Positions 1,872-52,275 are shown, numbered from the stretch's first letter. The stretch: 64,000 nt of DNA from Candidatus Ozemobacteraceae bacterium (GCA_036567845.1 DATCTT010000027.1:11-64010), one strand, 5' to 3'. Numbers and translations: made by a program. The notes: generated by a model from the sequence alone, not told the origin.

Positions 1872-3422
1872 ATGATGTTTCGCACAAAAACCAGGATTCG
1901 TATCATTTCGCTTTTCACCGCCCTGATGTTCGTGGCTTCGACGTTTGGGGCCTACGCACAGCAGGGAACGATGGTTCAGCAGATCCCTGCCGGAACCAAG
2001 GTCGACCTCTCTTCCCTCGCGAACAATGTTCCCGAGATCGGCATGCTCAAGACCAATCTGGGCACGATCGAGGCGGCGCTCAAACAGATCGAAACCACGG
2101 CGGCGCCGCTCTACAACAAGGTCGCCCCGTCCAACATGGAAGCCATGACCATCGGTGAACGGATCAAGGCGATTCTCGGCAACACCAAGTCGATGGTCAA
2201 CGACAGCATGAGCACCTACAAAGGCCAAGTCAACGACTGGTATGCGCAGCGCGGTCTTCCCGCCGATCCATCGTTCGAGCAACAGCTCGGCGTGGGGCTC
2301 AATGAGCTCGGCGTTCAGGCCGGCCAGATGCCCTTGAATGGCAAGGGTGACGCGATCGTTGCCAAGCTCAAGACGATTGTTGATGCGATCAAGACCAAGA
2401 TGCAGACGATCATCAACGCCATCCGTGCCCGCATCGTGGCCCTGGCCCAGAAGGTCGGCCTCATGAAGAAGGACGAGAAGGGCCCGGCCAAGGACAAGAC
2501 GGGGTCGATCGAGCCCCAGGCCGACGTGCAGTATGCCGACACCTTCTCCGGCAAACTCCAGAAGGGCGTTGCTGAAGGCACCAAGAATGCCAAGCAGTCG
2601 CTCAAGAGCAGCTTCTCATTTACCAACCTGGCCGTGACCACGACCGTCGCGGTGGGCACCAACTTGGCCCTGCAGATGATCAAGGGTGAGAAGCCCTCGT
2701 TCGGAAAGGCCGCCAAGGCCGTTGCATCGCTTGAGTTCGCTGGCAGCGTCGTGGGTTCCGCAATTGGTGCCGCAGGTGGTCAGTTCACCGCTTCGATCGT
2801 CCGCTCCTTCCTGCCCGGCCCGATCGGCTGCCTCGTGGGCGCCGTGATCCCGGTCATGATGGGCTCGGCCGCCGGCCAGATCGGCTCCTCGCTTGCCGGT
2901 GACATCAAGAACCGCCAGTTCGACCTGGGCAAGGCGATCAAGTCGATCGACCCCGTGGATCTGATCGGCTCCTCAATCGGTTCCACCATCGGCATGGCGC
3001 TTCTCTCGCCGATCCCCGTCATTGGGCCGATCATCGGCGGTATCGTCGGCGGCGTCGTGGGCAGCAAGGTTGCCAAATGGGTCCAGGGGATCTTCAAGGG
3101 CAACAAGATCAGCATCTTCAACCGCGGCCGGAACTTCACCCCCTCTTCGAGCTCGAACTCCAGCTCCGGCATCACCTTCGGCAGCGGCCAGAGCTTGGGC
3201 ATCTTCACCGGCGGCCAGGCCGGCAACGGCATGATCCCGACCGGCAACGCCGAAACCCCGGTCAGCGGCGATGTCCAGACTGTCGAGAAGAAGTATTACG
3301 AGACCTATCTCAACTACAACCGCCTGGTCGAAGCCGGCAAATACGACGAAGCCAAGAAGGTGTACGAAGACCTCAAGGTGTATTCCGACCAGTATAACGC
3401 CCTCAAGAACCAGGCCAAGTAA
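1872..3422 (+). CDS. Secreted protein with a glycine-zipper-like hydrophobic segment and a C-terminal coiled-coil/Lys-Tyr-rich tail; function unknown
   Basis: GGAGG at 1861-1865 then ATG at 1872. Signal peptide MMFRTKTRIRIISLFTALMFVASTFGAYAQQ. A Gly-rich small-residue segment GSVVGSAIGAAGG...IGGIVGGVVGSKV. C-terminal KKYYETYLNYNRLVEAGKYDEAKKVYEDLKVYSDQYNALKNQAK. Confidence 0.7.
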   Translation: MMFRTKTRIRIISLFTALMFVASTFGAYAQQGTMVQQIPAGTKVDLSSLANNVPEIGMLKTNLGTIEAALKQIETTAAPLYNKVAPSNMEAMTIGERIKAILGNTKSMVNDSMSTYKGQVNDWYAQRGLPADPSFEQQLGVGLNELGVQAGQMPLNGKGDAIVAKLKTIVDAIKTKMQTIINAIRARIVALAQKVGLMKKDEKGPAKDKTGSIEPQADVQYADTFSGKLQKGVAEGTKNAKQSLKSSFSFTNLAVTTTVAVGTNLALQMIKGEKPSFGKAAKAVASLEFAGSVVGSAIGAAGGQFTASIVRSFLPGPIGCLVGAVIPVMMGSAAGQIGSSLAGDIKNRQFDLGKAIKSIDPVDLIGSSIGSTIGMALLSPIPVIGPIIGGIVGGVVGSKVAKWVQGIFKGNKISIFNRGRNFTPSSSSNSSSGITFGSGQSLGIFTGGQAGNGMIPTGNAETPVSGDVQTVEKKYYETYLNYNRLVEAGKYDEAKKVYEDLKVYSDQYNALKNQAK

Positions 3423-3444
3423 GCTCTTCCTCCTGTCCGAATCC

Positions 3445-3478
3445 AAACCCCCGTCGGCATTGCCGGCGGGGGTTTCCC
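3445..3478 (+). terminator. Rho-independent terminator after the glycine-zipper protein gene
   Basis: Stem cccccgtcggca (3448-3459) pairs with tgccggcggggg (3461-3472, one mismatch), followed by a TTT run. Confidence 0.6.
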
Positions 3479-3577
3479 TTTCGCTGCATTTGCGCCGCTG
3501 GCGGATTGACGGGAATCCGGGGGTGTAGTACCATTCTGCGCCATCGATCGTCAGGTCCGGTTCGTGGAGGCGGAACA

Positions 3578-4813
3578 GTGAAGATTCTCGTTCTGGGTTC
3601 AGGAGCGCGCGAACACGCGCTGGTGCACTCTCTCTCCCATTCCCCCTCGGTACTGAAAATTTATGCCTGCCCCGGGAACGCCGGCATGCGGGATATCGCG
3701 GTCTGCCAGCCGTTCCGCGGGAACGCCGAACTGGTTCAGTTCGCCCGCGACAACGTCGAGCTGGCCGTGATCGGCTCGTCACGCTATGTCGCCGAGGGAA
3801 CCGTCGATGCCCTGGTGCGCGCCGGCATCCCCGTCATCGGACCTGCTGCCGACGCCGGCCGAATCGAGACCAGCAAAGCCTTTGCGGCGGCGTTCATGGT
3901 CAAGCACAACATCCCCTCGCCGATGACCCAGGTGGTCGCGAACCCGCGCGAGGCCGAGAAGTTTCTCGACGAGAACCCCTGGGTGCGTGTCGTCAAGTGC
4001 GACGGCTTCTCCCGCGGAAGCGGCGTTGCCGTCGTCGACTCGACCGACGAGGCCAAAGAAGCCGCACATCGCCTGTTCAAGGCCTTTGGCCCGCCGATCA
4101 TCCTGCAGGAGCGCGTCAAGGGCGTCGAGTGCTCCTACACCATCCTGACCGACGGCCGACAATGGGTTTCCTTCAGCTCCTGCCGCGATTACAAACGTGC
4201 GAACGACAACGAGACCGGCCCGACGACCGGTGGCCTGGGCGCCGTCAGCCCCTCGCCCGATCTGACACCCGAGCTCGAGGAGCGGATCCGGCAGCGCATC
4301 GTCCTGCCTGCTGTGGCCGGGATGCAGAGCGACAAGCTGTTGTATCGTGGCTTCCTCTCGTTCCAGCTCATGCTGACGCCGAGCGGCCCCAAAGTGCTCG
4401 AGTTCAACGCCCGCCTCGGGGATCCCGAAACCCAGAGCATTCTCGCCCGGTTCCGGGGGAACTTGGCCACCCTGCTGATGGACTGCGCGCTCGGTCGTCT
4501 CGACTCGACCGGTTCCGAGGTCGCTTTCGGGAAGCACAGCGCCGTCTCGGTCGTGCTTGCCCGGGCCGGATACCCCCTTGACGAACAAGTCCTGCCCGAG
4601 ATCCGGAAGCTGGAGGACGTGAAAGACTCGACGATCTTTCATGCCTCGAACGAGCTTGGCCCGTCCGGTGAGTGGGTGTTCCGCAGCGGCCGCCTCATCA
4701 CCCTTTCGGCGGTCGGTGAGACCCTCGCCGATGCCCGCCGCATCGTCTACGGCGATATCGATCGGCTGATGCTGAAGAATATCCATTTCCGGCGGGACAT
4801 CGGCGCCTCCTGA
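3578..4813 (+). CDS. purD: Phosphoribosylamine--glycine ligase (GAR synthetase)
   Basis: GGAGG at 3566-3570 then GTG at 3578. VKILVLGSGAREHAL is the classic PurD N-terminus, with an ATP-grasp body and a length of about 410 aa. Confidence 0.9.
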   Translation: MKILVLGSGAREHALVHSLSHSPSVLKIYACPGNAGMRDIAVCQPFRGNAELVQFARDNVELAVIGSSRYVAEGTVDALVRAGIPVIGPAADAGRIETSKAFAAAFMVKHNIPSPMTQVVANPREAEKFLDENPWVRVVKCDGFSRGSGVAVVDSTDEAKEAAHRLFKAFGPPIILQERVKGVECSYTILTDGRQWVSFSSCRDYKRANDNETGPTTGGLGAVSPSPDLTPELEERIRQRIVLPAVAGMQSDKLLYRGFLSFQLMLTPSGPKVLEFNARLGDPETQSILARFRGNLATLLMDCALGRLDSTGSEVAFGKHSAVSVVLARAGYPLDEQVLPEIRKLEDVKDSTIFHASNELGPSGEWVFRSGRLITLSAVGETLADARRIVYGDIDRLMLKNIHFRRDIGAS

Positions 4814-4844
4814 GATGCCCCGCAACCAGACTTCCTGAAAAACC

Positions 4845-4880
4845 ATCAGGCCCCGGATTCCTCCGGGGCCTGATATTTTC
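4845..4880. terminator. Bidirectional hairpin terminator between the convergent purD and PLD genes
   Basis: caggccccgg (4847-4856), loop attcct, ccggggcctg (4863-4872), followed by atattttc. Confidence 0.55.
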
Positions 4881-4893
4881 AGATATATATATA

Positions 4894-7146
4894 TCAAATC
4901 ATCGATTTCAGGAAGGTGAGCTTCGAAAGCGTCTTCATCAGCCACATCTTCTTGCCGGGCAGATCGTCCGGACCGAAGACCGCCTTCGCGTTCCCCTTGT
5001 CATCCAGCTCGATCCGATATTCCTTCGACACCGCGATGTCACTCATGATGCCGGACCGGAGCTCCGCGGCGAAGGCACGGGACTTGATCGCGGCGACGAC
5101 TTCCGAGTTTACTTCCTCGCTCAGGTAGTCCATGTTGTAGGTGCCGATAACCGCGACCTTGCCGTCGAACACAAAGGTTTTCGCATGGAGCTTGCGCTGC
5201 GCGGCGAAGGTGAAGATGCGGGCGGTCGGGATTTCCTTGAGAATGCGTTTCCAGTCCGCATAGAACATCGCCTGGGTCGCGAGACTGTCGGTCGAGGCGG
5301 GGCTGTTGGTGTGGATGATGATCCGCACGCCGCGTGCGCTGGCGCGCTTGAGGGCTGCGTTCGCCCGTTCCGTCAGGACGACATAGGGGTTCTGGATCAC
5401 GATCTCGGAGCGGGCACCGTCCATGAACCGGATCAGCTGGTCGGTGATGTCGTTGCGGGGGCCGGCGAGCGAGTGCTTGTCGATGATCTTGACCGGTGCC
5501 TCGTGCGCTCCGGCGAAGGATTCGAAGCCGCTGAAACCCTTCAGATGCTTGTAATTGGCGAGTTCTGTTTGATACTCGGTGAGCGCCTTGGTCCGCCGTT
5601 TGTCCAGGTTCTGGGCCGTGGTCAGCGCGTTACCGCCGATGTGGGCGGACATGGCGTCGAAGGCGAGCTCCAGCTCCTTGCTCATCACGTCGATGTTGCC
5701 CCACAGATCCTTCGTGATGTTCGTCTGCTTGCGCTCGGTGAACTCCTCGTCGAACGCCAGGTCGAGCTGCTTCGCGATGGCGGCGCTGCGGACGACCACG
5801 TCACAGTCACGATACGCCGTCGGCATGTCTTCCGGATCGACGAAGTAGTGGCTCGAGATGTTGCGGCCGCCCACGACCGAATACTCCCCGTCGACAACGA
5901 GAATCTTGTCGTGGTTGCTGGCCATCAGCTTGCGCGGGTCGAGCACGAACGTCACGAGATTCTCATGAACTGGGTTGAACACCTTGACTTCGACGTTGGG
6001 ATAGCTGACCAGTTCCTGGACGAAATCCTGGCCCATCAGCTTGCGCGTGAAGCCCTTCGTGCCGCGGGCATCCATCATGAACCGGATCTTGAGCCCTTCG
6101 CGGGCCTTGCGCAGCAGCGCGCCCTGGAGAGCCAGGCCGAAGATATCCTTGTCGACGATGAAATACTGGATGTCGATCGAGGTGCGGGCTTCGTTGACCA
6201 GCTTCCAGCGGGTGTACCAGGCATCCGAGTTCTGATACAGCAGCCGGACGTCAGCCGCATCGTCACTCCCGCCCGAGGCCGGCCGGAACTGGTCGAAGCT
6301 GATGTCGGGCGCTGGCAGGAAACGGGCTGCAAGGTTCTCATAGGCGATCATGAACGTCTTGTAGTCGTCCTGTATGTTCGTGAACGACCAGACGTTCTTG
6401 AAATACGAGCCGAACCGGAAAATCTTGACCGGGAAGGCGAGCCACGAGGTGTCGCGATACTTGCCATACTGCGCGGCCACGACGGAATACTTGGTCGAAA
6501 GGGTGGTCTTCCACTGGTCGAACTGTTTGTTCGCGGCGTAATACTTGAGCCGGGCCTGCGCTTCGCCGGCCCAGGCGGGGTTGCGGGTGTCGGAAGCGAG
6601 TTGCTGCAGGATCTCAGTGGCCTTGGCTGTGTCGCCCTTGAGCTGTTCATAGGCTTTGGCCAGCTCATACTTCAACTGTGCCGCATGGGCCGAGGCTGGA
6701 TTGGCCTGAAGATACTGCTCGATACGGGAAATGGCCGCATCGGGGGATTTCCGGTTCTGGTCGCTCCAGAGCGCCTGGAGCATACTGCGGATCTCGGTGG
6801 GAAGCTGGGGGGCGACCTTCGCTGAGGAGGTCGAGCCCGTGGAGGAGGTCGCGGACTCGTCGGTGCCGGAAGGCGTCGCCGTTTCCTGATCGATATCCGA
6901 AGCTGCCTGCGCTTCGTCCGTCGACTGGTTCAACGTTGCCTCGTAGGCGCCCTTGGCCTGGGTGTAGGCAGCGAGCGCCTTCTTCACCTCGGTCTCGGAA
7001 AGTCCCTTCGAGACGGCGTCCTGATACGCCTTGTAGGTGGAGATATACTGGTCGTAAACGGCCCGTGTGTCGGTCTGGCCGAACGCGGTTGCCGATGCCA
7101 GCATGAGGAACAGGGACATCCGGACCCAGGTCGACGGAGTGCGCTT
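4894..7146 (-). CDS. Secreted phospholipase D-family protein (two HKD motifs) with an N-terminal TPR-like/low-complexity region
   Basis: RBS GGGAGG 7 nt upstream of ATG (7146). Signal peptide MKRTPSTWVRMSLFLMLASATAFGQ. HKD motifs NHDKILVVDGEYSVVGGRNI and KLHAKTFVFDGKVAVIGTYNMD. Confidence 0.85.
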   Translation of the reverse strand, partial: KRTPSTWVRMSLFLMLASATAFGQTDTRAVYDQYISTYKAYQDAVSKGLSETEVKKALAAYTQAKGAYEATLNQSTDEAQAASDIDQETATPSGTDESATSSTGSTSSAKVAPQLPTEIRSMLQALWSDQNRKSPDAAISRIEQYLQANPASAHAAQLKYELAKAYEQLKGDTAKATEILQQLASDTRNPAWAGEAQARLKYYAANKQFDQWKTTLSTKYSVVAAQYGKYRDTSWLAFPVKIFRFGSYFKNVWSFTNIQDDYKTFMIAYENLAARFLPAPDISFDQFRPASGGSDDAADVRLLYQNSDAWYTRWKLVNEARTSIDIQYFIVDKDIFGLALQGALLRKAREGLKIRFMMDARGTKGFTRKLMGQDFVQELVSYPNVEVKVFNPVHENLVTFVLDPRKLMASNHDKILVVDGEYSVVGGRNISSHYFVDPEDMPTAYRDCDVVVRSAAIAKQLDLAFDEEFTERKQTNITKDLWGNIDVMSKELELAFDAMSAHIGGNALTTAQNLDKRRTKALTEYQTELANYKHLKGFSGFESFAGAHEAPVKIIDKHSLAGPRNDITDQLIRFMDGARSEIVIQNPYVVLTERANAALKRASARGVRIIIHTNSPASTDSLATQAMFYADWKRILKEIPTARIFTFAAQRKLHAKTFVFDGKVAVIGTYNMDYLSEEVNSEVVAAIKSRAFAAELRSGIMSDIAVSKEYRIELDDKGNAKAVFGPDDLPGKKMWLMKTLSKLTFLKSMI

Positions 7147-7354
7147 CATACGGTACCTCCCAGGCTCTTCAAAGGATAATTTGTCCAATTATACGAGCGA
7201 ACCCGGGGGGGGCGTAAAGGGTACGCAGTTCCCCGCGAAGAATCTCACGAGAGATTTGAGAGGTTCTCGCAAGGGGGAAGGGGGCGACACGGGAGACCTC
7301 TGTACGTATTCTGGATGAGAATTTCCTGCGGCAATTGGCAGAAACGAGGAGTTT

Positions 7355-7894
7355 TCAGGCGGGGCTTGAGGGCGCCGGATAGCGGAACAGGCCAGAAATG
7401 CCCAGCAGGATGGCGGCGAGGAGCGGCAGGAAGGCGATCCGGATGAGATGCGGCCCCTGGAACAGGTACACCTTCACCTGGCCGGGCTCCTGCTGGGTCA
7501 GCCGAAGCGTGTAGGTGCCGTTGCGTGTGGCGGGGGCATAGATGGTCTGCCAGGTTGGGGGGGCCGCCGGGTCAGGCGGCCGGAGGAGATGAACCGTCTG
7601 ATCGGTCACGGGGGCGTTGTCGGGGTTCAGGACCTCGATACGAACATCACGGAGTTCACGCTGTTTCGCCCCAACATCGATACGGAACGGATCCCCGGCC
7701 GTTGCCGCGAAGGTGAGCTCCGATGCGAACGGCGTGGCAGGGGCCTGTGCGGGTTCGAGGCCGAGCATTCCTTCGCCGATGCCGGCCTGAAAATAATTCG
7801 GATCGATCAGGAGAAGGGCCGCTGTTAGAATACCAAGAACGATAAAATAGCGGATGATGATCCAGGCCACGCCTCCGCGTCGGTGCTCTCGCAT
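7355..7894 (-). CDS. Hypothetical membrane protein (N- and C-terminal TM segments)
   Basis: RBS GGAGGGAG 8 nt upstream of ATG (7894). MREHRRGGVAWIIIRYFIVLGILTAALLLI forms a TM helix, and the C-terminal IAFLPLLAAILLGISGLF is also hydrophobic. It lies downstream of clpB on the same strand. Confidence 0.45.
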   Translation of the reverse strand: MREHRRGGVAWIIIRYFIVLGILTAALLLIDPNYFQAGIGEGMLGLEPAQAPATPFASELTFAATAGDPFRIDVGAKQRELRDVRIEVLNPDNAPVTDQTVHLLRPPDPAAPPTWQTIYAPATRNGTYTLRLTQQEPGQVKVYLFQGPHLIRIAFLPLLAAILLGISGLFRYPAPSSPA

Positions 7895-8062
7895 GCGTTT
7901 CACTCCCTCCAATCCCTTTCTCCCGTGGTGCCTGCCGGTTCCCGCGGCACGCCCCATACCGATACGATATCAAAAATCCGTTCCCCAGGTATGCCTATTG
8001 GTGAATGTTGCGGGGTGGGTGTGGGGGCGGGTCTCAGACCCGCCCCTACGGAAACATCGATG

Positions 8063-10675
<2,613 letters not shown>

Positions 10676-10793
10676 TGATATCTAACCTCCGGCGTCCGCC
10701 GCGGGTGAAAAAAGATGTTCCCCGCTGTAACTAACAAAAATCGTGCCACAGGCAAAAGTGTCTCTGGAAGACCGCTGTCACCGGTCGAACACG

Positions 10794-10805
10794 TGCGACG
10801 TCGCA
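10794..10805. promoter_or_regulatory. Perfect 12-bp palindrome TGCGACGTCGCA in the clpB/aclB divergent intergenic region (candidate regulator site)
   Basis: The sequence equals its own reverse complement and sits in the 336-bp divergent region. No CIRCE or clear sigma32 motif was seen. Confidence 0.25.
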
Positions 10806-10931
10806 TCAGACAGCCTCCCGCGCGACGTTTCCGTCGCATCCAGATGCCCCCAAGTGCCGGGCGAAACACGATCGCCCGCCTCTCCTCGGCTCCCGCCTGT
10901 TTTCTCGCCAGCCGGCTCGCATATCGCCGCT

Positions 10932-10962
10932 TGACGGTTGAGGGAAGGTACTATATACCCAT
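10932..10962 (+). promoter_or_regulatory. Sigma70-like promoter candidate for aclB
   Basis: cTTGACG, a 15-16 nt spacer, then TATATA; about 45 nt upstream of the aclB ATG. Confidence 0.3.
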
Positions 10963-11011
10963 AGAACATGCGGCCCCAGAGAGCCGTATGACAGGGAAAG
11001 GAGCAGGATTC

Positions 11012-12286
11012 ATGGCACAACGGGGTATCCGTGAGTATCATGGCAAGAAGATGCTGGCCCGCCACCTGGGCGAGTATCTGAACGGCGGGATCGGCTACGA
11101 CGGCAAGATCGTGCTCGTTGACGAGAAAACCGACTGGAAACAGCTGCGCACGGAGAATCCGTGGCTCGGCTCGATGCCTCTGGTCGCGAAGCCCGATCAG
11201 CTGTTCGGCAAGCGCGGAAAGCATGGTCTCGTGCTCGTCAACAAGAATTTCGACGAGACCAAGGCCTGGATCATCGAGCGCATGGGCAAGACCACCAAGG
11301 TCGGCGAGACGACCGGCACGCTCACGCATTTCCTCATCGAGCCCTGCATTCCGCACGAAGCCGAATATTATGTCGCGATCAAATCGACCGCCGAGGGGGA
11401 TGTGATCTACTTCTCGCTTGAAGGCGGCATCAGCGTCGAGGAAAACTGGGACAAGGTCATCCAGATCCAGGTGCCGGTTCTCAAGGGCATCGACGGGATC
11501 GACATTGAGAAGGTCCTGCCCGCGCAGCTCGGCAAGAACAAGAAGCTCGTTGCCCGGTTCATCATCGGGCTGTACAAGTATTTCGCGGCGCTCCATTTCA
11601 CCTACCTCGAGATCAACCCGTTCGCCATCGCCGGCGAATCGATCATTCCGCTCGACATGGTCGCCAAGCTCGACGATACGGCTGAGTTCTGCGCGGCGAA
11701 GTTCTGGGGGGAGGACATCGAGTTCCCGGCCGCGTTCGGCCGCAACTTCACACCGGAAGAGCAGAAAGTGCGCGAGCTCGACGCGATGTCGGGTGCTTCC
11801 CTCAAGCTGACCCTGCTCAATCCCGATGGCCTCGTTTGGAACATGGTCGCGGGCGGCGGTGCCTCGGTCATTTTTGCCGACACGGTGTGCGATCTGGGCT
11901 TTGCGAAGGAACTGGCATTTTACGGGGAGTATTCCGGCGACCCCAGTACCCAGCTCACCTATGAGTATGCCAAGACCGTCATGGATCTGATGACCCGCAA
12001 GCCGGACCCGCAGGGGCGGCCGAAATGCCTGATCATTGGCGGCGGCATCGCCAACTTCACCGACGTTGCGAAGACCTTCACCGGAATCATCATGGCGATG
12101 AAGGAATACGCAAAGAAGCTTCAGTCGGTGGGTGCCCGGATCTACGTTCGGCGCGGCGGCCCGAATTACCACGAGGGCCTCGCCAAGATCAAGGCGGCGG
12201 CGACCGAGCTCGGTCTGCCGATCGAAGTGCACGGGCCGGACTACCACATGACCCGTGTCGTGCGCGACGCCCTCCAGACGGCGTGA
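11012..12286 (+). CDS. aclB: ATP-citrate lyase beta subunit (ATP-grasp, SucC-like)
   Basis: RBS AAAGGAG then ATG at 11012. ATP-grasp fold sharing the architecture of the succinyl-CoA synthetase beta subunit, about 425 aa. It immediately precedes an AclA-type gene. Confidence 0.85.
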   Translation: MAQRGIREYHGKKMLARHLGEYLNGGIGYDGKIVLVDEKTDWKQLRTENPWLGSMPLVAKPDQLFGKRGKHGLVLVNKNFDETKAWIIERMGKTTKVGETTGTLTHFLIEPCIPHEAEYYVAIKSTAEGDVIYFSLEGGISVEENWDKVIQIQVPVLKGIDGIDIEKVLPAQLGKNKKLVARFIIGLYKYFAALHFTYLEINPFAIAGESIIPLDMVAKLDDTAEFCAAKFWGEDIEFPAAFGRNFTPEEQKVRELDAMSGASLKLTLLNPDGLVWNMVAGGGASVIFADTVCDLGFAKELAFYGEYSGDPSTQLTYEYAKTVMDLMTRKPDPQGRPKCLIIGGGIANFTDVAKTFTGIIMAMKEYAKKLQSVGARIYVRRGGPNYHEGLAKIKAAATELGLPIEVHGPDYHMTRVVRDALQTA

Positions 12287-12311
12287 CTGCGGAAAGGAAC
12301 CAGAGAAGACC

Positions 12312-14156
12312 ATGAAACGACCGTCATATCTTCTGTTCGATAAAAACACCCGCGCGATCGTCTTCGGCATGCAGACGAACGCCGTCCAGCGCATGCTCGA
12401 TTTCGACTACTGCTGCAAGCGGGAAAAGCCCTCCGTCGCCGGCATCGTCGACCCGGGCCGCTCGGGCACCAGCAAATGCTTCTATGGCAAGAAGGAAATA
12501 TTCGTGCCGGTCTATCCCGACATCGCGACGGCCGTCGCGGCTCACCCCGATGTCGACGTGATGATCAACTTCGCCTCGTTCCGGTCGGCCTACGACACGA
12601 CGATGCAGGCACTTGACGCCGAGCAGATCCGCACGATCTGTGTCATCGCCGAGGGCGTTCCCGAACGTTTTTCGCGTCACATGCGCGCTGTCGCCCTCGA
12701 GCGCGGTAAGACGATCATCGGCCCGGCCACTGTCGGCGGCATCGCGGCCGGCGCCTTCAAGATCGGCAACACCGGCGGCACGATCGACAACATCTGCTCC
12801 TCCAAACTCCACCGGCCGGGCTCGGTCGGCTTTGTGAGCAAGTCCGGCGGCATGTCGAACGAGGCCTACAACATCATCGCCCGCAACAGCGACGGCCTGT
12901 TCGAAGGCATCGCCATTGGGGGGGACGCGTATGCCGGTTCGAATCTGCTCGAGCATCTGATGCGCTTCGAAGCCAATCCCGCGATCAAGATGCTTGTCTG
13001 TCTCGGTGAGGTTGGCGGCGAGGAGGAATGGCGCATCGTCGATGCTCTTCGGTCGGGCAAGATCAAGAAGCCTCTTGTCATGTGGGTCACCGGCACCTCG
13101 ATTAAATATATGCCGAAGGGTATACAATTCGGCCACGCCGGCGCGAAGGCTGACGCCAGCCGGGAGACGGCCGAGGCGAAGAACGACGCCCTGCGCGCCG
13201 CCGGAGCGATCGTGCCGACCTCGTTCGACGATTTCGACAAGGCAATCAGGGATACCTTCGACAAGCTCGTGGCGAAGGGCGTCCACAAGCCGATCCCCGA
13301 CGTCGAGCCGCCGGCGATTCCGATGATGTATAAGGAAGCCGCGGCCCGCAACCTCGTGCGCCGGCCGACCAACTTCACCTGCACGATCTCCGACGACTCG
13401 GGCGACGAGTTGATCTACGCGGGACACAAGATCAGCAAGGTGATCTCGGAAAACTACTCGCTCGGCGAGGTCATCGGCCTGCTCTGGTTCAAGGAACGGC
13501 TGCCCAAGTGGGCGGCGGGCTTCATGGAAAACGTCCTGAAGCTGTGCGCCGACCACGGCCCCTGCGTCTCGGGCGCCCATAACGCCATCGTGACGGCTCG
13601 TGCCGGTCGCGACCTGATGAGCGCCGTCGCCTCGGGCCTTCTGACGATCGGCCCCCGGTTCGGCGGTGCCGTCGCCGGTGCGGCCCTAGCGTTCAAGGCT
13701 GCGCGTGACGCCCAGATGACGCCGGAAGGCTTCGTCGACGACATGAAGAAGAAGAACGAGAAGATCCAGGGAATTGGGCATCTGATCAAGAGCCTCAAGA
13801 ATCCCGACATGCGCGTCGTTCTTCTGAAAAAGTTCGCCAAGGAGAACTTCCCCGCGACCCCACTGCTGGACTATGCCCTCGAGGTCGAGCAGATCACGAC
13901 GTCGAAGAAGGACACCCTGATCCTCAACGTCGACGGTTGCATCGGCGTTCTGTCGGTCGACATGATGTATGGCCTCGGCTGGGACGAGGAAAAGATCCAG
14001 GAAGTCGTCGACAGCGGCGGCCTCAACGGCCTCTTCCTGCTCGGCCGCACGATCGGCATGATCGGCCACTACATGGATCAGCGCCGACTCGAAGCCCCGC
14101 TCTACCGCCACCCCTGGGACGACGTTCTCTACGATCTCCCGAAACTCGAAGAGTGA
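12312..14156 (+). CDS. aclA: ATP-citrate lyase alpha subunit (CoA-binding, phospho-His, citrate-synthase-like C-terminus)
   Basis: ATG at 12312. GIQFGHAGA phospho-histidine loop, CoA-binding N-terminus, 614 aa. The aclB-aclA gene order matches Chlorobi/Nitrospira-type loci. Confidence 0.85.
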   Translation: MKRPSYLLFDKNTRAIVFGMQTNAVQRMLDFDYCCKREKPSVAGIVDPGRSGTSKCFYGKKEIFVPVYPDIATAVAAHPDVDVMINFASFRSAYDTTMQALDAEQIRTICVIAEGVPERFSRHMRAVALERGKTIIGPATVGGIAAGAFKIGNTGGTIDNICSSKLHRPGSVGFVSKSGGMSNEAYNIIARNSDGLFEGIAIGGDAYAGSNLLEHLMRFEANPAIKMLVCLGEVGGEEEWRIVDALRSGKIKKPLVMWVTGTSIKYMPKGIQFGHAGAKADASRETAEAKNDALRAAGAIVPTSFDDFDKAIRDTFDKLVAKGVHKPIPDVEPPAIPMMYKEAAARNLVRRPTNFTCTISDDSGDELIYAGHKISKVISENYSLGEVIGLLWFKERLPKWAAGFMENVLKLCADHGPCVSGAHNAIVTARAGRDLMSAVASGLLTIGPRFGGAVAGAALAFKAARDAQMTPEGFVDDMKKKNEKIQGIGHLIKSLKNPDMRVVLLKKFAKENFPATPLLDYALEVEQITTSKKDTLILNVDGCIGVLSVDMMYGLGWDEEKIQEVVDSGGLNGLFLLGRTIGMIGHYMDQRRLEAPLYRHPWDDVLYDLPKLEE

Positions 14157-14185
14157 CAACCGGCCCGCTCGCGGGCACGACGATG

Positions 14186-14224
14186 AAAAGCCGGCTTCCC
14201 GCCCTGGGAAGCCGGCTTTTGTAT
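14186..14224 (+). terminator. Rho-independent terminator after aclA
   Basis: aagccggcttccc (14188-14200), loop gccct, gggaagccggctt (14206-14218), followed by ttgtat. Confidence 0.65.
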
Positions 14225-38191: not shown

Positions 38192-41100
38192 CTAAGCGGG
38201 CGGCTTTGCGCAAAGCGCGGCAAAGGCGCATGTGGAACAGGGTGCCTCGGCGGGGGGCTGCCAGGCGCGTTCGCCGCGGATCCGCGCCACGAGCTCCGTG
38301 GCTGACCGCTCGAAGGCCGGGAGGTCGGGATCGACGGGCTCGATGCGCACCGATGTCTCGGTCAGATAGGCCAGAGCCGCGGATGCGAAGGCGAGGGCGC
38401 CGCTCTTCCCGAACAGGCCCCGGCGGGCCGCAGCGAGATACAGAGCAAGCTGCCGGGCATAGACCGCGTGGGCCGCAGGTGAAAAAGCATGAGATTTATA
38501 ATCAATGATATATACTTCTCCGTCCCGTAGATCGATGCGGTCGGCAAACCCGCGCAGCAGGAACGGGCCATCCTGGTCTGACGTTCCTGTCACCTCGAGC
38601 CGGAGGTTCACCTCGGCCTCGAGATGTGCCGCATCTGTCGCCGCCAGGGGTGAGGCGAGATACGAGGCGAGCAGGGCTGCCGCGCGGTCCCTGCCCGCCG
38701 CCCCTTCCTCACCGTGAAGAGGGACCAGCCGGTCGAGCAGCCCGAACAGCCGGTCGCGTCGGACGTCGTCCGGGAGGGCGGACACGTTTCCCTCGTGGTA
38801 CAGGCGCAGGGTGCGATGAACGAGGTTGCCGACGGCCGGCCCGCGTCCGGACTCGGACGGACCCGCAAGGGGCGCGATATGCCGGCGCTGAAAAAAATAT
38901 CGCCGGGGACACTGCTCATACGCATCGAGATCCCCGAGCGAGTAGATCTCCTCACTCACTCCGCTTCCTGCCACCCGCCTGGGCCGGGACGCCTCCTCCC
39001 GGAGACGGAGAAAACGGCCGGTGAGAGCGGTGATCTGCGGGGTGAGATCGACTCCATCAGCCGGCTGGGACGGGAGAGGGGTGGCGGGGGCGGAGGAAGC
39101 CGTTCCTGCCGCAAGCCATCGCTCCGCGACAGTGGGCCACTCCGCGAGGGCGTCGACGGAGCCGAGGGTTTCATCCGCGCGAAGCATGCCGGCAAGCTCT
39201 CCGATGGGCTGGCCTGGTTTGTCGATATCCGTTTCCGAGCCGCTGATGACAAGAAGATCACGGGCGCGAGTGAGGGCGACATACAGCTTCCGGCGCTCTT
39301 CGGCGGAATTGGCGACCTGCTCCGCGTCGAAAACGGCCCGGATTTCGGCCTCCGGGCTGCCCTCACACTCTTTCCGATGGACCACGAGCCCCTGGTCGCG
39401 GGTCATGAACAGGCCCTGTTCGCGTTTGAACGTGCGCGTGTGGAGGTTCGGCAGAAAGACGACGGGGAACTCGAGCCCTTTCGATTTGTGAATGGTCAGG
39501 ATCTTGACGGCTTCGCCCTCCTCGAGACCGAGACCGGCCTCGTCCTCGTCGACCCCGGACTCGATCGTCCGGTCATGGTAGGCAAGGAAGTCGCGGAGGG
39601 TCGTGAAGACACCGTTGGCTTCGAACGCCCGGACGATACCCACGAATTTCGCGAGGTTGTTCTCGAGGCGGCGCCGGCGCAGATCATCCGTCTGGGCGGC
39701 CGCGTGCTCGAGGAACCCGGCCTGCTCGAGCACGGCATGGACGAGGTCGAGAATCCCCAGCGTGCCGCTCATTCCCTGAAGGCGGACGAACAGCCGGCGG
39801 AACGAGCGGACACGCTCCGGCAGGACGCTCTCGGGAAGGGCCAGCAGGTGGGCGAGGAGGCTGACGTGTTCTTCCCGCCTGTCATGGAACAGCGCCGACA
39901 GCTCCGCATCCGAAAGGCCATACTGGGGCCCGGTCAGGATCGTCGCCAGCGAGAGATCGTCGGTCGGCCGCACGAGAAGCCGGAGAAACGCGACAACGGC
40001 AGCGATCTCATGGCGCGCGTAGAATCCGAGGCCGCCGGCCATCACATACGGGATCCCGCGGACCAGCAGGGCGTCTTCGTAGGCGCGGGGAAGACGGTTG
40101 ACGGAGTGGACGATGATCGCGAAGTCTCCATACGCTGCCGGCCGTTTCCCCTGCCGGGTCTCGATGGCCAGGCCGCCGCGGACAAGAGTCTGGATGAGGT
40201 CGGCGATGGTTTCGGCCTCTTCGGAACTGCCGGGCGCCGCGGCAAGAAGACAGGCAATCGGTCTTGGTCTGGTCGAAGCGCCACGATCGGCTGTCTGAGG
40301 CGGTGGCGGATTTTCAATATTGCGGGAAATATATCTGTCGGCCAGAGTCAGGATTTCCTGAACGGACCGATAGTTCTGGTTCAGCCAGATCGTGCGGGTT
40401 GCGGGAAACGCATGGAAGGTGCGGATGTCGGCACCCTGGAACCGATAGATGCTCTGTTTCTCGTCGCCGACAACGGTGATGTGGCCTTCGCGGCCGTCGA
40501 CGAACGTCCGGATGATGCCGAACTGCTCCTGGTTGTTGTCCTGAAACTCGTCGATCAGGAAAACCCGTTGTGCCGGATCGCTGCCCGCGGCACGCTGGTC
40601 GGCGATCAGGGCCGAGCTGCGGAGGAGGATCTCGTCGAAATCGAGCAGGTGTCGTTCCCCGAGCTTCTGGAGATACCGGCTGTAGAATCGGAAAAACCAG
40701 ATCTGGACCCTCTTTTCGAGGGGAGAGGGCGGTGTACCGCGCCGGGCGAATCGCTCGTCGGTGAAACGCTGGAACCCGCCGGGTGAGAGGAGAAACCGCC
40801 GGACGTGGCCAAGGAGGCCTGGAAACAGGCTTGTGACGTGATGAGCCTGGTCGGGGCCGAACGCCTCGGGGCCCTCGAGCAGTGCATCGGCATGGGCCGC
40901 CCGGAACTCCTCGAGAAGATCGGCGAGAAGCAGGCGGCGGCCGCCTTCGGTCAGAACCGTGTCACCCCGGTCGATGCCGGCGCCGAACGGGTCGCGGCGA
41001 AGCAGATCGCCGAGGAAGGCGTGGAAGGTCGAGACCTGGAGATTGCGAAGCACTGAAGCGGTGAGGCCGCGTGCCGGATGCGCGAGCCGCTCCTTCATCT

Positions 41101-41302
41101 CCGCGGCGGCCTTACGGGTGTAGGTGATCGCGACCAGCTCCATCGGCAGGATTCCCTGGCGGAGCAGGGCCACGATGCGTCGTGTCAGGACCTCGGTCTT
41201 GCCAGAGCCCGCTCCGGCAGCGATTTTCAGAAATCCGGCAGACGGCTCGCGAACGGCATCCTGTTGCTCGGGGTTCAGCCCGGTAAGGAGGTCAGTCAGC
41301 AT
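38192..41302 (-). CDS. UvrD-like helicase plus C-terminal RecB-type PD-(D/E)xK nuclease with a 4-Cys (Fe-S) cluster; second subunit of an AdnAB/AddAB-type helicase-nuclease
   Basis: Walker A AGAGSGKT. Nuclease IIDYKSHAF. Cys ligands YEQCPRRYFF ... CSTCAFAALC. 1036 aa, overlapping the upstream paralog by 11 nt. Confidence 0.85.
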   Translation of the reverse strand: MLTDLLTGLNPEQQDAVREPSAGFLKIAAGAGSGKTEVLTRRIVALLRQGILPMELVAITYTRKAAAEMKERLAHPARGLTASVLRNLQVSTFHAFLGDLLRRDPFGAGIDRGDTVLTEGGRRLLLADLLEEFRAAHADALLEGPEAFGPDQAHHVTSLFPGLLGHVRRFLLSPGGFQRFTDERFARRGTPPSPLEKRVQIWFFRFYSRYLQKLGERHLLDFDEILLRSSALIADQRAAGSDPAQRVFLIDEFQDNNQEQFGIIRTFVDGREGHITVVGDEKQSIYRFQGADIRTFHAFPATRTIWLNQNYRSVQEILTLADRYISRNIENPPPPQTADRGASTRPRPIACLLAAAPGSSEEAETIADLIQTLVRGGLAIETRQGKRPAAYGDFAIIVHSVNRLPRAYEDALLVRGIPYVMAGGLGFYARHEIAAVVAFLRLLVRPTDDLSLATILTGPQYGLSDAELSALFHDRREEHVSLLAHLLALPESVLPERVRSFRRLFVRLQGMSGTLGILDLVHAVLEQAGFLEHAAAQTDDLRRRRLENNLAKFVGIVRAFEANGVFTTLRDFLAYHDRTIESGVDEDEAGLGLEEGEAVKILTIHKSKGLEFPVVFLPNLHTRTFKREQGLFMTRDQGLVVHRKECEGSPEAEIRAVFDAEQVANSAEERRKLYVALTRARDLLVISGSETDIDKPGQPIGELAGMLRADETLGSVDALAEWPTVAERWLAAGTASSAPATPLPSQPADGVDLTPQITALTGRFLRLREEASRPRRVAGSGVSEEIYSLGDLDAYEQCPRRYFFQRRHIAPLAGPSESGRGPAVGNLVHRTLRLYHEGNVSALPDDVRRDRLFGLLDRLVPLHGEEGAAGRDRAAALLASYLASPLAATDAAHLEAEVNLRLEVTGTSDQDGPFLLRGFADRIDLRDGEVYIIDYKSHAFSPAAHAVYARQLALYLAAARRGLFGKSGALAFASAALAYLTETSVRIEPVDPDLPAFERSATELVARIRGERAWQPPAEAPCSTCAFAALCAKPPA

Positions 41303-44300
41303 CGTCGGAAGCCTCCTGCGTGGAATCGGGTGTCGGGAGGCGGAGCTGGTCGAGCCGTTCCTGGCAGAATGGTTGGAATTCGCAGTGCTTTGTCGGTGAA
41401 CGGTTGATGCAGGACATTGCCGAGGCCGCCGGAGAAGGATGGCAGTCGAACACCCGTTCTGAAACGATCCTTTCCATGAGCCGCTCCAGGGTGTCGCTGA
41501 AGGTGGCGAACTGGTCGGGTGTGACCTGGACGGCCCATTCGGGGCCTGCGCCCAGTCCGAGCATCGCCGATTTCAAAAAACCCGGCTGGAAGCCATTGTA
41601 TTTCCTTTTATATAGATCATCCTTCGGATACACGGTGCCGGCACACACCCGTTCATGGCCCAGCTGGCGCGCGGCAAGAAGATAGAAGGGAAGTTGGATT
41701 TCGGATGGCGGGCCGGATTCCGGGAATGCCTCGCGCAGCATCGAGGCGGCCGACTTTGCCGAACCCGTCTTGTAGTCGATGATCCAGATCGTGCTGTCCG
41801 CATCCTCGAGCCACCGGTCGATCCGCCCTTTGCAGGGATATCCGCGGAACTCGAACCGGAACCCCGCCTCGACGCCGATGGTGCCGGTCGCCGGAATCTG
41901 GCCGTTGACGTAGACGGCTTCGCGATACCGGTTCAGAATTTCCCGGGCCTGGCCGTCATACTGCTTCCGCTGGAGCACGGGGAGCTGGCCGAGAAGTGGC
42001 ACACCATGGGACCTCCAGAGGGCTTCCAACTCATCAAATCTTGGCGATCGGCCGCCCGCGAAGGTTCCAGCCGGGTCATGCAGAGCCTGGAGGCACGCGT
42101 GGATCGCGTTTCCGAAGATGAGCGCGGGTTGCCGCTCGATCCGGTCGTCGCGCAGGCGGAGGACGTGACGGTAGAAGAACCGTCGGGGACAGTCGATGAA
42201 ATCGCGAAGCGCCTGGGCAGAAAACCGGAATCCCGCGGGCAGTTCGGCCGGACAGGGGGGGGCAATTCCGAATCGGCGTGGTTTCAGAAGATCCCTGTCT
42301 GCTTCATCCGTGTCGGAGATTGCGTGGACGGCTTCAGACAGGCCCTGCAGGCCGGACTCCAGGCTCAGGCGCTCCTCCGGGGACAACCGGGCCAGGTGGG
42401 TGCGGAGTTCGCCGATCGTCAGGATTCGCTGTTCATGCCAGTCACGGTGGGGGTGAAGACCGAGTTCGTCCAGGAACGGCGCCGGCAGGGCGGGGTCGGT
42501 TCCGATGCGGCGGGGCATCGTGAGGATCAGCCCTTCTTCGGCCCGCGTCAGGGCAACATACAGCAACCGGCGTTCCTCTTCGAGATGGTCGGCGTGATCG
42601 GCGGGGTAGGGGTTGAAGAAGCGGATCTCCCTGTCACTTGCGTCGATCGCTTTCTGCACCGCGGCCAGGCCGGCCGAGCCGATCAGGAGGTTCTCGCGGA
42701 GGCGGACGGGGAACTGGTCCTCGCAGAGTCCCGTCACGAACACCACGGGAAACTCGAGCCCTTTCGACTGGTGGACCGTCATCAGCCGCACCCCCGGCGC
42801 TGCCGGGGCCACGTCGGCTGCCGGCTCATCCTCCTGTTCGAGGGTCGATGCGTAATACGTGAGCCACTCATCGAAGCTCGGCATCAGATCAGCGGCGACG
42901 GGGGGGCGGCCAAACTGTTTTTCCCGGACGTCGCAGAAATCGTCAATCATGTTCCGGAACCGCATGACATGCCGTGCTCCGGGAGACGCCGGGTCGGCGA
43001 CGAGATGCGGAACGGCGAGTAGAAGCCGGGCGAATAGGGTGACGAGCGGAAGGCCGATTCCGTCATGCAGGAGGCGCAGGGTCTCGCGGAACGCGATGAG
43101 CCGGGTGACTGTGTCCGGGGTGGGAGGGACGAAACCGTCGGGAAGCGGTTCGTCAGGCGGGCGGTCGAGCCAGGCGTCGAGTGCGGTCTCGAGAGCCGCC
43201 CCGGGGGGAAGGGCGGCGAGATACTGCTGGACCCAGATGGGGTCGAGGCCAAAAACGGGGGAGGCGAAGGCCCGCCGCAGAGGTTGCTCTCGGGCTTCCT
43301 CCGGACCTGCCGTCGCCTGGAGCAGCGAGGCGAGCGCCGTCACCTCTTCGGACCGAAAAAATTTCATATCACCGGCTATATCAAAAGGGATATGCATTGC
43401 CCGGAGAGCCTCAGACAACAGATCGATCTGGTAATTGTTCCGGACCAGGATCGCGATTTCGCCGGGGGTGAAGCACCGATGGGTCCCGTACGTGAGCAGT
43501 GAGGCGATGCGGCGGGCGATCATGCGCGCCTCGTCGAGCTCGTCACGGGCCTCGAGCAGCTCGACGAAGCCCTGACGGCTGCTGCGCGCCACAAGGCCGC
43601 CCGGGCTTCCGCCGGAAGGGGGACTTTTGGGGGCAAGCTCCTGCGACCAGTGCAGGTTGGAGGCCAGGGCGAGAATGTCGGCGGCGCTGCGGTAGTTGCC
43701 GCCGAGTGAAAACAGACGGGCTTTGAACTCGCGTCGGAAGGCGCTGCGCGAACCCATCATACCTGGATCCGCCCCGCGGAACCGGTAGATGCTCTGCAGT
43801 GGGTCGCCGATCACCGCGATGCGGGGGGGCGGCACCTCGTCCGGGCTTTTCAGCAGCCGGAGAAGGAGATACTGGGCCGGGTCGGTGTCCTGAAACTCGT
43901 CGACGAGGACGACCCGGAACCGGTCGCGATACCGGGCGGCCGTGTCGGGATCGCGGAGAGCCTGGATCGAGAACGAGATCAGATCGCGGAAATCGAGGTA
44001 GCCGGTCCGGACCCGCTCCTCCTCATACCGCCGGTACAGATGCAACAGCTCGTCGAGACGCTGCCTGGCCATGGAGGGCGGTGGATGGGCGGTGATGGCC
44101 TGTTGGAGCTGGTCGGGAGTCACGAGATTCGATTTGAGCAGCGAGATGAACGTGAGCACTTCGAGCTGGAAACCGCGTTTGGTGAGCACCCGGCCGAACA
44201 CCGGGAAGGTTTCCGGAGTCAGTCGTGCACAGATGCCCGCCATCAGCAGGGCTTCCTTGAAGCCCGTGAGCAGTCGGAAATCCGGCCTGATGCCAACCAG

Positions 44301-46562: not shown

Positions 46563-46696
46563 ACGGGTTCCCTCCCTCTTGACCGGGATATTCTATCACA
46601 AGGGCAGCGGTGCTTGACTTGAAGCCGTCCGGTCGGGCACACTTTGCACAAGCACGGGCTATGCCCGTCGGGATACTGCCGCATCAGGAGGCGAAC

Positions 46697-47101
46697 ATGA
46701 AATTCATCGGGGCCGACACGCACAAGTGCGTGGGAGCGAAGAGCTGCGAGAAGACCTGCGCCAGGACGTTTTTCAAGACCGAGGATGTGGCGTATTCGGC
46801 GATCCGTGTCACGCGCACGAAAGACGGGTGGGACATCAACGTCTGCAACCAGTGCGGCAAATGCATCGAGATCTGCCCGGAGAAGGCCATTTCGCGGAAC
46901 AGGGCCGGCACCGTCGTGATCGACAAGTCCCTGTGCGTCGGCTGCTTCATGTGCGTCGGCTTTTGCCCGACGCTGTCGATGCGCGTGGCGCCCGGCGGTC
47001 GTGAGCCGTTCAAGTGCGTTTCCTGCGGCGCCTGTGCCAAGGCTTGCCGAAGCTGTGCCCTGACCCTGAGTGAGCGCGATCACGCGCAGCTGCCGTCTTG
47101 A
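46697..47101 (+). CDS. 4Fe-4S ferredoxin-type protein (probable electron-transfer partner of AOR)
   Basis: RBS CAGGAGG. CNQCGKCIEICP and CVGCFMCVGFCP (two CxxCxxCxxxCP motifs), plus extra Cys pairs. 134 aa. Confidence 0.75.
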   Translation: MKFIGADTHKCVGAKSCEKTCARTFFKTEDVAYSAIRVTRTKDGWDINVCNQCGKCIEICPEKAISRNRAGTVVIDKSLCVGCFMCVGFCPTLSMRVAPGGREPFKCVSCGACAKACRSCALTLSERDHAQLPS

Positions 47102-47126
47102 CGGATCGAGGAGAGGAGTGAATAAT

Positions 47127-49322: not shown

Positions 49323-49379
49323 CAATAGTTCATTCCTGCTTCCGTTTCCCTTCGGCTTTTCGAGCCGATCAGCCCGTTT

Positions 49380-49877: not shown

Positions 49878-49997
49878 GCAGATTTTGAAACCCGCTCCGA
49901 CGGTATGGGAGCAGCGCGGCGCTCGAGCGATCAAGGTTGTCGGGGGCATGCCAGGTTGATGTAGGGGCATATTTATAACCAGCCCGTCACGATATGT

Positions 49998-52263: not shown

Positions 52264-52275
52264 GGAACTGAGAAG

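Follow-up and report, generated by a model that had tools for sequence, protein, structure and literature searches.

ATP-citrate lyase (ACL) genes are routinely used as a marker of the reductive tricarboxylic acid (TCA) cycle when carbon fixation is scored in metagenomes. A stretch of 64,000 nucleotides from Candidatus Ozemobacteraceae bacterium (GCA_036567845.1, DATCTT010000027.1:11-64010; the window in what follows) carries an aclB-aclA pair, here called aclBA, and raises the question of what such a pair says about the metabolism of its host. The sequence-only reading of this DNA had taken the genes as a signature of the reductive TCA cycle and the host as an anaerobic autotroph or mixotroph. 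We arrive at a different account, to which we give a probability of roughly 0.55. According to it, aclBA would be a self-contained operon encoding an ACL of a eukaryote-like clade, the enzyme would act as a biosynthetic citrate node and would not mark CO2 fixation, and the palindromic sequences upstream of aclB would be sites belonging to the divergent chaperone gene clpB.

The identity of the two proteins was assessed by domain content, structural homologues and catalytic residues. In Pfam, AclB matched the ACL-type ATP-grasp domain Citrate_synth_N (PF24948; 258.6 bits, cut-off 83) and Citrate_bind (PF16114; 265.1 bits, cut-off 26.8), both over the full profile, and AclA contained CoA_binding (PF02629), Ligase_CoA (PF00549) and a C-terminal Citrate_synt domain (PF00285, residues 402-600). 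When AclA and AclB were compared with all PDB sequences, the alignments ran end to end, with 841 and 526 bits, respectively, to the ACLY of Methanothrix (Methanosaeta) concilii (6HXI, chains 6hxi_B and 6hxi_A), 755 and 397 bits to human ACLY, and 418 and 165 bits to Chlorobium limicola ACL (6HXJ, chain 6hxj_B for AclA). Scores were far lower for Hydrogenobacter citryl-CoA synthetase (87 and 50 bits), citryl-CoA lyase (44 bits) and the alpha subunit of succinyl-CoA synthetase (no more than 114 bits). The QFGHAGA loop of AclA, with its phosphohistidine, aligns exactly with human QFGH760AGA, His275 being equivalent to human His760; in the lyase module, H415, H490 and D541 correspond to human H900, H975 and D1026. 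H275, H415, H490 and D541 are invariant across 70 aligned clade members, and AclB retains the citrate-loop residues equivalent to human N346, T348 and R379. The ratio of non-synonymous to synonymous substitution (dN/dS, Nei-Gojobori) against six relatives was 0.04-0.15 for aclB and 0.03-0.12 for aclA, a pattern of strong purifying selection. In addition, aclB lies directly 5' of a co-oriented aclA in all 68 related loci that include upstream DNA. Given the ACL-specific Pfam domains, the ranking of the PDB matches, the invariant catalytic residues, the low dN/dS and the aclB-aclA adjacency, AclBA is, as far as sequence allows, a heteromeric ATP-citrate lyase (EC 2.3.3.8), as had been proposed.

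Could the genes instead encode a mis-called relative of succinyl-CoA synthetase or of citryl-CoA synthetase/lyase, or have decayed and lost their function? The sequence-only reading had named two results that would overturn ACL, a grouping with those enzymes and a GHAGA context unlike that of AclA; we checked both, and neither overturned it. The best NCBIfam matches are indeed to succinyl-CoA synthetase subunits and citryl-CoA lyase, in a collection that contains no ACL model, and some public orthologue records are named 'succinyl-CoA synthetase alpha subunit' or 'citrate/2-methylcitrate synthase'. However, those NCBIfam scores fall far under the cut-offs (66 against 375 and 144 against 336 bits for succinyl-CoA synthetase, and 68 against 245 bits for citryl-CoA lyase), whereas the two ACL-specific Pfam domains reach 259 and 265 bits. 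The PDB scores likewise favour ACLY, the alignment to solved ACLY is full length with every catalytic residue retained, and both open reading frames (ORFs) are intact with dN/dS within 0.03-0.15. A mis-call or a remnant is thus highly improbable.

Two observations concern variation within AclA. At residue 491 (approximately positions 13782-13784), directly after the second catalytic His, the window protein has Leu, as do 7 of 30 Riflebacteria sequences, and most other members have Arg; the same position is Arg976 in the human enzyme and Lys in Methanothrix. Separately, a set of AclA-like proteins of approximately 1000-1040 residues (P0012, P0020, P0065 and others) carries a tandem duplication of the ligase-CoA and citryl-CoA lyase modules. 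In these, the first copy keeps GHAGA with ADRDP replacing ADHGP, and the second keeps ADHGP and NVDG and has lost GHAGA. The duplicated sequences look eukaryote-like.

The presence of this enzyme in the lineage is already known. Orthologues in public metagenome-assembled genomes (MAGs) of Riflebacteria are annotated 'ATP citrate synthase' or 'ATP-citrate lyase alpha-subunit', and AclAB has been published for Ozemobacteraceae (PMC11300587), although the literature on ACL in Riflebacteria offered passing mentions only. Within its family, for which structures have been solved, the enzyme is well conserved and unremarkable.

The outer limits previously given for the pair (11012-14156) proved correct. 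The long ORFs that a mechanical listing returns, 10715-12286 and 12255-14156, begin at in-frame codons upstream of the true starts, which are the ATGs behind the ribosome-binding sites GGGAAAGGAG (aclB) and GGAAAGGAA (aclA). The former site is invariant in the five closest relatives, and the latter serves aclA on its own, 25 nt separating the aclB stop codon from the aclA ATG. The resulting products of 424 and 614 residues also appear in independent public gene calls from two contigs with identical AclA. Upstream of aclB, a putative promoter with a 17-nt spacer was recognized; essentially all of the approximately 30 Riflebacteria loci carry CTTGACA-N17-TATAC(C/A) about 50 nt 5' of the aclB ATG, within flanks that have diverged. 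A consensus promoter scan did not call this site, the -10 element of which ends in C, and an Rfam scan gave no match in the aclB leader. Downstream, a hairpin with a 15-bp G+C-rich stem (14186-14220) begins 30 nt past the aclA stop codon and runs by its 3' arm into UUUUGU. Its predicted fold has a free energy of -29.1 kcal/mol and a z-score of -5.1, and none of 200 shuffled sequences folded as well; a terminator scan had overlooked it, and folding supported the hairpin. Taken together, positions 10931-14222 would constitute a self-contained bicistronic operon, with a housekeeping sigma-70-type promoter, aclB, aclA and an intrinsic terminator.

Placing this ACL among its homologues bears directly on the reductive-cycle question. 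An exhaustive HMMER search over 1.84 billion cluster representatives yielded 336 clusters at E ≤ 1e-30. In a neighbour-joining tree of full-length representatives, Riflebacteria, Myxococcota, Bipolaricaulota, Methanothrix and Thermoplasmata form one group beside metazoan ACLY, and the Chlorobiaceae ACL cluster (P0156; 39% identity) is placed on the opposite side of the tree. AclA shares 60% identity with the M. concilii protein, 63% with Methanothrix and Thermoplasmata MAG proteins, 71% with some Myxococcota proteins and 55% with residues 488-1097 of human ACLY. On alignments and trees alike, therefore, the Riflebacteria enzyme does not group with Chlorobiaceae ACL (39% and 418 bits, against 55-63% and 755-841 bits for the human and Methanothrix enzymes); by these comparisons it belongs to the clade of Methanothrix, Thermoplasmata, Bipolaricaulota, Myxococcota and eukaryotic ACLY, apart from the Chlorobiaceae type.

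Comparison with characterized enzymes points the same way. The best PDB match, M. concilii ACLY-A/B (6HXI, 6ZNW), shares the two-subunit architecture and the subunit lengths, and the Asp-to-Ala mutation in 6ZNW (…LNVAG…) falls on the position of D541. The Methanothrix host is an archaeon; its two genes overlap in the final bases of aclB, where aclA begins, and an aconitase-family gene comes next, whereas here the two genes are separated by a short gap and the pair stands alone, facing clpB. Human and other metazoan ACLY (6POE, 6HXH, 3MWD and others) correspond to AclA over residues 488-1097 and to AclB over residues 3-419. The human enzyme is a single chain of 1101 residues with a regulatory linker, and it works in the cytosol on citrate exported from mitochondria, so that lipid synthesis and histone acetylation are supplied with acetyl-CoA; the enzyme here consists of two polypeptides in a single compartment. 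The AclAB of C. limicola and other Chlorobiaceae has the same heteromeric domain architecture, chemistry and aclB-aclA order but is much more distant in sequence, and it serves an autotrophic cycle together with 2-oxoglutarate:ferredoxin oxidoreductase and fumarate reductase, for which we found no evidence here. In Hydrogenobacter thermophilus, citryl-CoA synthetase (6HXQ) and citryl-CoA lyase (6HXP) consist of homologous modules that carry out the same two half-reactions, but the lyase is a separate protein, whereas here the lyase module is fused to AclA.

A scan for AclA over one genome per GTDB species recovered 71 loci and located the host. The AclA of the window is 98% identical to that of a Candidatus Ozemobacteraceae MAG, 94-95% to those of three more MAGs, 87% to that of Ca. 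Ozemobacter sibiricus and 78-82% to those of approximately 25 other Riflebacteria, including Ca. Rifleibacterium amylolyticum. In the same scan, identity was 62-66% to Myxococcota (Haliangium, Kofleriaceae and others) and 58-61% to Bipolaricaulota and to MAGs labelled 'uncultured Thermotogae'. On this evidence, the host belongs to the family Ozemobacteraceae of the phylum Candidatus Rifleibacteriota, which bears out the suggestion of an under-described lineage; the GC content of 65% quoted for it was too high, the window measuring approximately 62% (0.58-0.655 across 2-kb bins). Riflebacteria share a recurrent gene order of purD, a phospholipase-D/cardiolipin-synthase-like gene (cls), a gene for a 200-aa product, clpB and aclB-aclA, and their AclA proteins form one clade in the neighbour-joining trees. 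The single clade and the conserved purD-cls-clpB-aclBA order therefore indicate that aclBA has been inherited vertically within the phylum. Riflebacteria-type aclBA, with the same gene order, also occurs in two records labelled Candidatus Methylomirabilis sp. (L009, DYKG01000001.1) and Erysipelotrichia (L031, SABV01000050.1), and a protein labelled Clostridiales (P0041) is of the Riflebacteria type; all three fall inside the Riflebacteria clade and are probably mis-binned or mis-labelled records.

Does AclBA nevertheless provide the citrate-cleaving step of a complete reductive TCA cycle, in an anaerobic autotroph or mixotroph that draws on reduced ferredoxin? ACL is the classical key enzyme of that cycle, and the window contains ferredoxin-linked genes, namely an aldehyde:ferredoxin oxidoreductase (AOR) family gene and a polyferredoxin gene. 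The clade speaks otherwise: identity is 39% to Chlorobiaceae ACL as against 55-63% to human, Methanothrix and Thermoplasmata proteins, and the named members (eukaryotes, an acetoclastic methanogen, Myxococcota and Bipolaricaulota) are not known as reductive-TCA autotrophs. Methanosaeta/Methanothrix has been reported without succinyl-CoA synthetase (bioRxiv 10.1101/2022.10.25.513756), and its ACL is therefore unable to serve a closed reductive cycle. The partner genes tell the same story. We scanned all of the approximately 45 plausible ORFs of the window with Pfam, some of them also with NCBIfam, and none encoded a 2-oxoacid:ferredoxin oxidoreductase (for 2-oxoglutarate or pyruvate) or a fumarate reductase, nor an aconitase, isocitrate dehydrogenase, malate dehydrogenase or citrate synthase. 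In the approximately 30 Riflebacteria loci, the 10 kb around aclBA likewise contained neither the reductive-cycle partners nor other TCA genes.

What the window does encode includes an alpha-amylase, IPT/TIG and VWA proteins, a gingipain-like C25 peptidase, an M42 aminopeptidase, a sulfatase-like protein and a TonB-dependent receptor, a hydrolytic profile that, judged by gene content, is that of a heterotroph. For Ca. Ozemobacter sibiricus, the original description reportedly predicted that carbohydrates support growth, either through fermentation or through the reduction of Fe(III). Riflebacteria have been described as anaerobic fermentative heterotrophs (PMC7509429). Gene content and literature thus point to an anaerobic organoheterotroph, and the inference of an autotroph or mixotroph, like the use of aclBA as a signature of the reductive cycle, is not supported here. 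A complete reductive cycle in this host is rather unlikely, and aclBA alone does not show CO2 fixation.

If the enzyme is not part of a reductive cycle, its relatives offer a hint as to what it does. In four other lineages of the clade, aclBA is joined to genes of a TCA branch. Several Myxococcota have aconitase-aclB-aclA, the Myxococcota group sister to Riflebacteria has aclB-aclA followed by a gene of the Iso_dh (isocitrate dehydrogenase) family, Bipolaricaulota-type MAGs have aconitase-iclR-icd-aclB-aclA, and Methanothrix has the aconitase-family gene mentioned above. This linkage to aconitase (acn) and isocitrate dehydrogenase (icd) genes in sister lineages suggests a biosynthetic branch from citrate to 2-oxoglutarate. 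Just upstream of acn-iclR-icd-aclBA, the Bipolaricaulota-type MAGs also carry two genes for squalene/phytoene synthases and one for an amine-oxidase-type desaturase.

By analogy with the solved homologues, at 55-60% identity, AclB would bind ATP and citrate, and His275 of AclA would be phosphorylated by ATP and pass the phosphate to citrate, giving citryl phosphate. CoA bound to AclA would then form citryl-CoA, which the C-terminal lyase module (His415, His490 and Asp541) would split into acetyl-CoA and oxaloacetate. The overall reaction is expected to be near equilibrium and reversible. In our account, the host would be an anaerobic organoheterotroph with a branched, biosynthetic TCA pathway in which ACL would form the citrate node, and we would favour the direction in which acetyl-CoA, oxaloacetate, ADP and Pi give citrate, CoA and ATP. 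Citrate would be converted through aconitase and isocitrate dehydrogenase into 2-oxoglutarate for the synthesis of glutamate. There is a functional precedent in Desulfobacter postgatei, the ACL of which was reportedly found by Moller, Schauder, Fuchs and Thauer in 1987 to run in the citrate-forming, ATP-yielding direction. The likeness to this energy-limited anaerobe, which forms citrate with a substrate-level gain of ATP, is one of role; D. postgatei uses sulfate to oxidize acetate completely, in contrast to the fermentative metabolism described for Riflebacteria. That ATP-conserving citrate formation feeds 2-oxoglutarate and glutamate synthesis in an energy-limited fermenter is a possibility that we hold at somewhat less than even odds.

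The same enzyme could also run in the eukaryotic manner, cleaving citrate at the cost of ATP into acetyl-CoA and oxaloacetate, again outside a full reductive cycle, with citrate obtained by import or by reductive carboxylation of 2-oxoglutarate derived from amino acids. Cleavage is the known physiological direction in all characterized relatives of the clade, that is, in eukaryotic ACLY. The acn/icd linkage of the sister lineages is compatible with either direction between citrate and 2-oxoglutarate, and the peptidases and the AOR of the window fit amino-acid fermentation, which yields 2-oxoglutarate. Such cleavage would, however, spend ATP in a fermenter that is limited in energy and already obtains acetyl-CoA from pyruvate, and none of the Riflebacteria loci has a citrate transporter gene next to aclBA. 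A citrate synthase, if present in the same compartment, would moreover create a futile cycle. We regard cleavage, with either source of citrate, as unlikely.

Several points tell against the account of a eukaryote-like, biosynthetic ACL and should be set beside the evidence for it. The trees are neighbour-joining trees with midpoint rooting and few named outgroup sequences, the named outgroup clusters being those of Chlorobiaceae, a DPANN archaeon and a Dojkabacteria MAG only, and no sequence in them was recognized as an ACL of Nitrospira, Campylobacterota or Aquificota. The search for partner genes covered the window and the aclBA neighbourhoods, and partner enzymes of a reductive cycle, or a citrate synthase, may sit beyond them. 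The linkage argument comes from sister lineages, since the aclBA loci of Riflebacteria themselves include no linked aconitase or isocitrate dehydrogenase genes, and the direction of flux is not something that sequence reveals. Finally, at least one survey counts 'Ozemobacteraceae MAG27' and 'Bipolaricaulis MAG166', by their AclAB, among the organisms that encode a reductive TCA cycle (PMC11300587), an assignment that apparently rested on marker genes alone.

For metagenomics, the practical consequence is that a reductive TCA cycle should be scored from aclBA of the eukaryote-like clade only when partner genes and phylogeny support it, because the Riflebacteria enzyme falls in a different clade, the named members of which are mostly heterotrophs, methanogens and eukaryotes, and because the operons of its sister lineages are tied to acn and icd. 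A wider proposal, which we regard as doubtful, is that in Riflebacteria, and perhaps throughout the prokaryotic branch of eukaryote-like ACLs, AclBA is the sole citrate-forming enzyme, yielding ATP and feeding aconitase and isocitrate dehydrogenase for 2-oxoglutarate synthesis. Were it true, metagenome surveys that equate aclAB with the reductive TCA cycle would return systematic false positives for Riflebacteria, Bipolaricaulota, Myxococcota and Methanothrix, and a corollary would be that this bacterial and archaeal clade, not the autotroph clade, contains the closest prokaryotic kin of eukaryotic ACLY.

The remaining part of the account concerns the DNA between aclB and the divergent clpB, an arrangement kept in many Riflebacteria. 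The ClpB protein is an ATP-dependent chaperone of 870 residues (NCBIfam TIGR03346, 1355.8 bits, cut-off 1232). A perfect 12-bp palindrome, TGCGACGTCGCA, had been noted between the two genes and described as an element of the aclB promoter region shared with clpB. Perfect 12-bp palindromes are common in the window (33, about one per 1.9 kb), and this 12-mer with at most one mismatch is expected 0.31 times per window, so that its occurrence is not significant by itself. Its conservation says more. When the clpB-aclB spacers of the five closest genomes were aligned, mean column identity was 60%, and three islands proved invariant: TGCGACGTCGCA, a second inverted repeat at 10822-10837, and ACAAAAA(T/C/A)CGTGCCAC at 10733-10749. 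Because TGCGACGTCGCA is invariant in five relatives with otherwise diverged intergenic DNA, it is, by this comparative measure, a real cis-element. The second repeat, GCGAC-N6-GTCGC(A), has the half-sites of the palindrome and keeps them unchanged in the five relatives while its spacer varies. Two of the four matches to GCGAC-N0-8-GTCGC in the whole window are in the clpB-aclB spacer, 27 nt apart.

Distances assign the repeats to clpB rather than to aclB. In the relatives, the palindrome lies 120-127 nt and the second repeat 147-154 nt from the clpB start, whereas their distances to aclB range over 190-318 nt (217-318 nt for the palindrome). In Ca. Ozemobacter sibiricus (L003), where aclB is approximately 985 nt from clpB, the palindrome is at +189 from clpB and -796 from aclB, and the palindromes and a TGGCAT-N5-TTGA element stay beside clpB. 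In Riflebacteria in which aclB does not adjoin clpB, the aclB promoter is present with no such palindrome upstream. The palindrome as an operator of aclB was consequently rejected: its presence stood, and its role as a shared aclB promoter element did not.

Between the repeats and clpB, the third invariant island reads TGGCACGATTTTTGT on the clpB strand, a putative sigma-54-type -24/-12 element that is correctly oriented and located 59 nt from the clpB ATG. No other match to TGGCAC-N5-TTG occurs in the window, where 0.33 are expected. Homologous elements, often a perfect TGGCAC-N5-TTGC, are located 40-121 nt upstream of clpB in many other Riflebacteria, including loci in which clpB is not beside aclB (L006 and L064). 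Two details speak less well for this assignment: the -12 element here reads TTGT, not TTGC, and the window revealed neither rpoN nor a gene for an enhancer-binding protein. We suggest that the repeats probably belong to a sigma-54-type module of clpB and not to the regulation of aclB, and that the palindromes are candidate sites for an enhancer-binding protein that would activate the sigma-54 promoter of clpB. Sigma-54 control of a heat-shock chaperone is unusual among bacteria. Of the heat-shock operators CIRCE, HAIR and the CtsR box, none is known to resemble TGCGAC/GTCGCA. Upstream of clpB in more distant Riflebacteria, no common inverted-repeat motif was found, and the TGCGAC sites therefore appear specific to an Ozemobacter-like subgroup.

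Table 1. Positions of the genes and sequence elements discussed; window features are followed by sister-lineage loci
Feature	Position	Strand	Remarks
clpB	8063-10675	-	870 aa; ATP-dependent chaperone, divergent from aclB
Putative sigma-54-type -24/-12 element TGGCACGATTTTTGT	10734-10748	-	59 nt from clpB ATG; predicted function
Perfect palindrome TGCGACGTCGCA	10794-10805		Invariant in five relatives
Second inverted repeat, GCGAC-N6-GTCGC(A)	10822-10837		Half-sites as in the palindrome
Putative aclB promoter	10931-10959	+	-35 TTGACG, 10931-10936; 17-nt spacer; -10 TATACC, 10954-10959
aclB ribosome-binding site GGGAAAGGAG	10994-11003	+	Read from the sequence
aclB	11012-12286	+	424 aa; ACL beta subunit
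aclA	12312-14156	+	614 aa; ACL alpha subunit
Intrinsic terminator after aclA (predicted)	14186-14222	+	Hairpin 14186-14220, then UUUUGU
Lysine-rich ORF	~36322-36939	-	Lys/Arg/Pro/Ala-rich stretch, then more ordinary C-terminal part
Polyferredoxin gene	46610-47101	+	Precedes AOR-family gene
AOR-family gene	47070-49322	+	AFOR_N and AFOR_C domains
165-aa ORF	49380-49877	+	AOR cluster; function not assigned
ThiS-like/ThiF fusion	49998-50873	+	AOR cluster
Sulfite/nitrite-reductase-like protein (NIR_SIR)	51103-52263	+	AOR cluster
HAMP-Hpt-HATPase kinase	52276-54432	+	AOR cluster (whole span 46610-54432)
acn/icd-linked loci L046, L047, L058, L061	~3000-11800		Sister lineages
acn/icd-linked loci L034, L038, L040	~6600-11900		Sister lineages
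acn/icd-linked locus L074	6640-11163		Sister lineage
acn/icd-linked locus L078	6658-11835		Sister lineage

A distance of 33 kb separates the AOR cluster from aclBA, and relatives show no linkage between the two. The sequence-only reading had listed a tungsten-type AOR and a ferredoxin in support of autotrophy; the AOR-family and ferredoxin genes are present, and the choice between tungsten and molybdenum is not decidable from sequence. Both genes fit an anaerobic fermenter as well as an autotroph. The AOR-family protein matched AFOR_N (PF02730, 163 bits) and AFOR_C (PF01314, 329.7 bits) and, among solved AOR structures, 9g7j (183 bits) and 1aor (181 bits). The PDB alignments begin at approximately residue 56, and the true start is therefore probably near 47232. 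Long antisense ORFs overlap the cluster and mislead naive ORF picking.

The lysine-rich, 'H1-like' protein reported earlier was recovered as an ORF with 10 Lys in a stretch of 40 residues. An overlapping ORF on the opposite strand (36286-37017, +) had no Pfam match. Further along, two adjoining genes for UvrD-helicase/PD-(D/E)XK nuclease proteins of 1036 and 1103 residues (38192-44603, -) make up an AddAB/RexAB-type pair for double-strand-break repair. The sole Rfam match in the window is a full-length cobalamin riboswitch (RF00174, 76.4 bits) at 56462-56644 (-). Directly downstream of it, the gene of the TonB-dependent receptor (54494-56476, -) encodes Plug and beta-barrel domains, and the two together look like a BtuB-type unit for vitamin B12 uptake.

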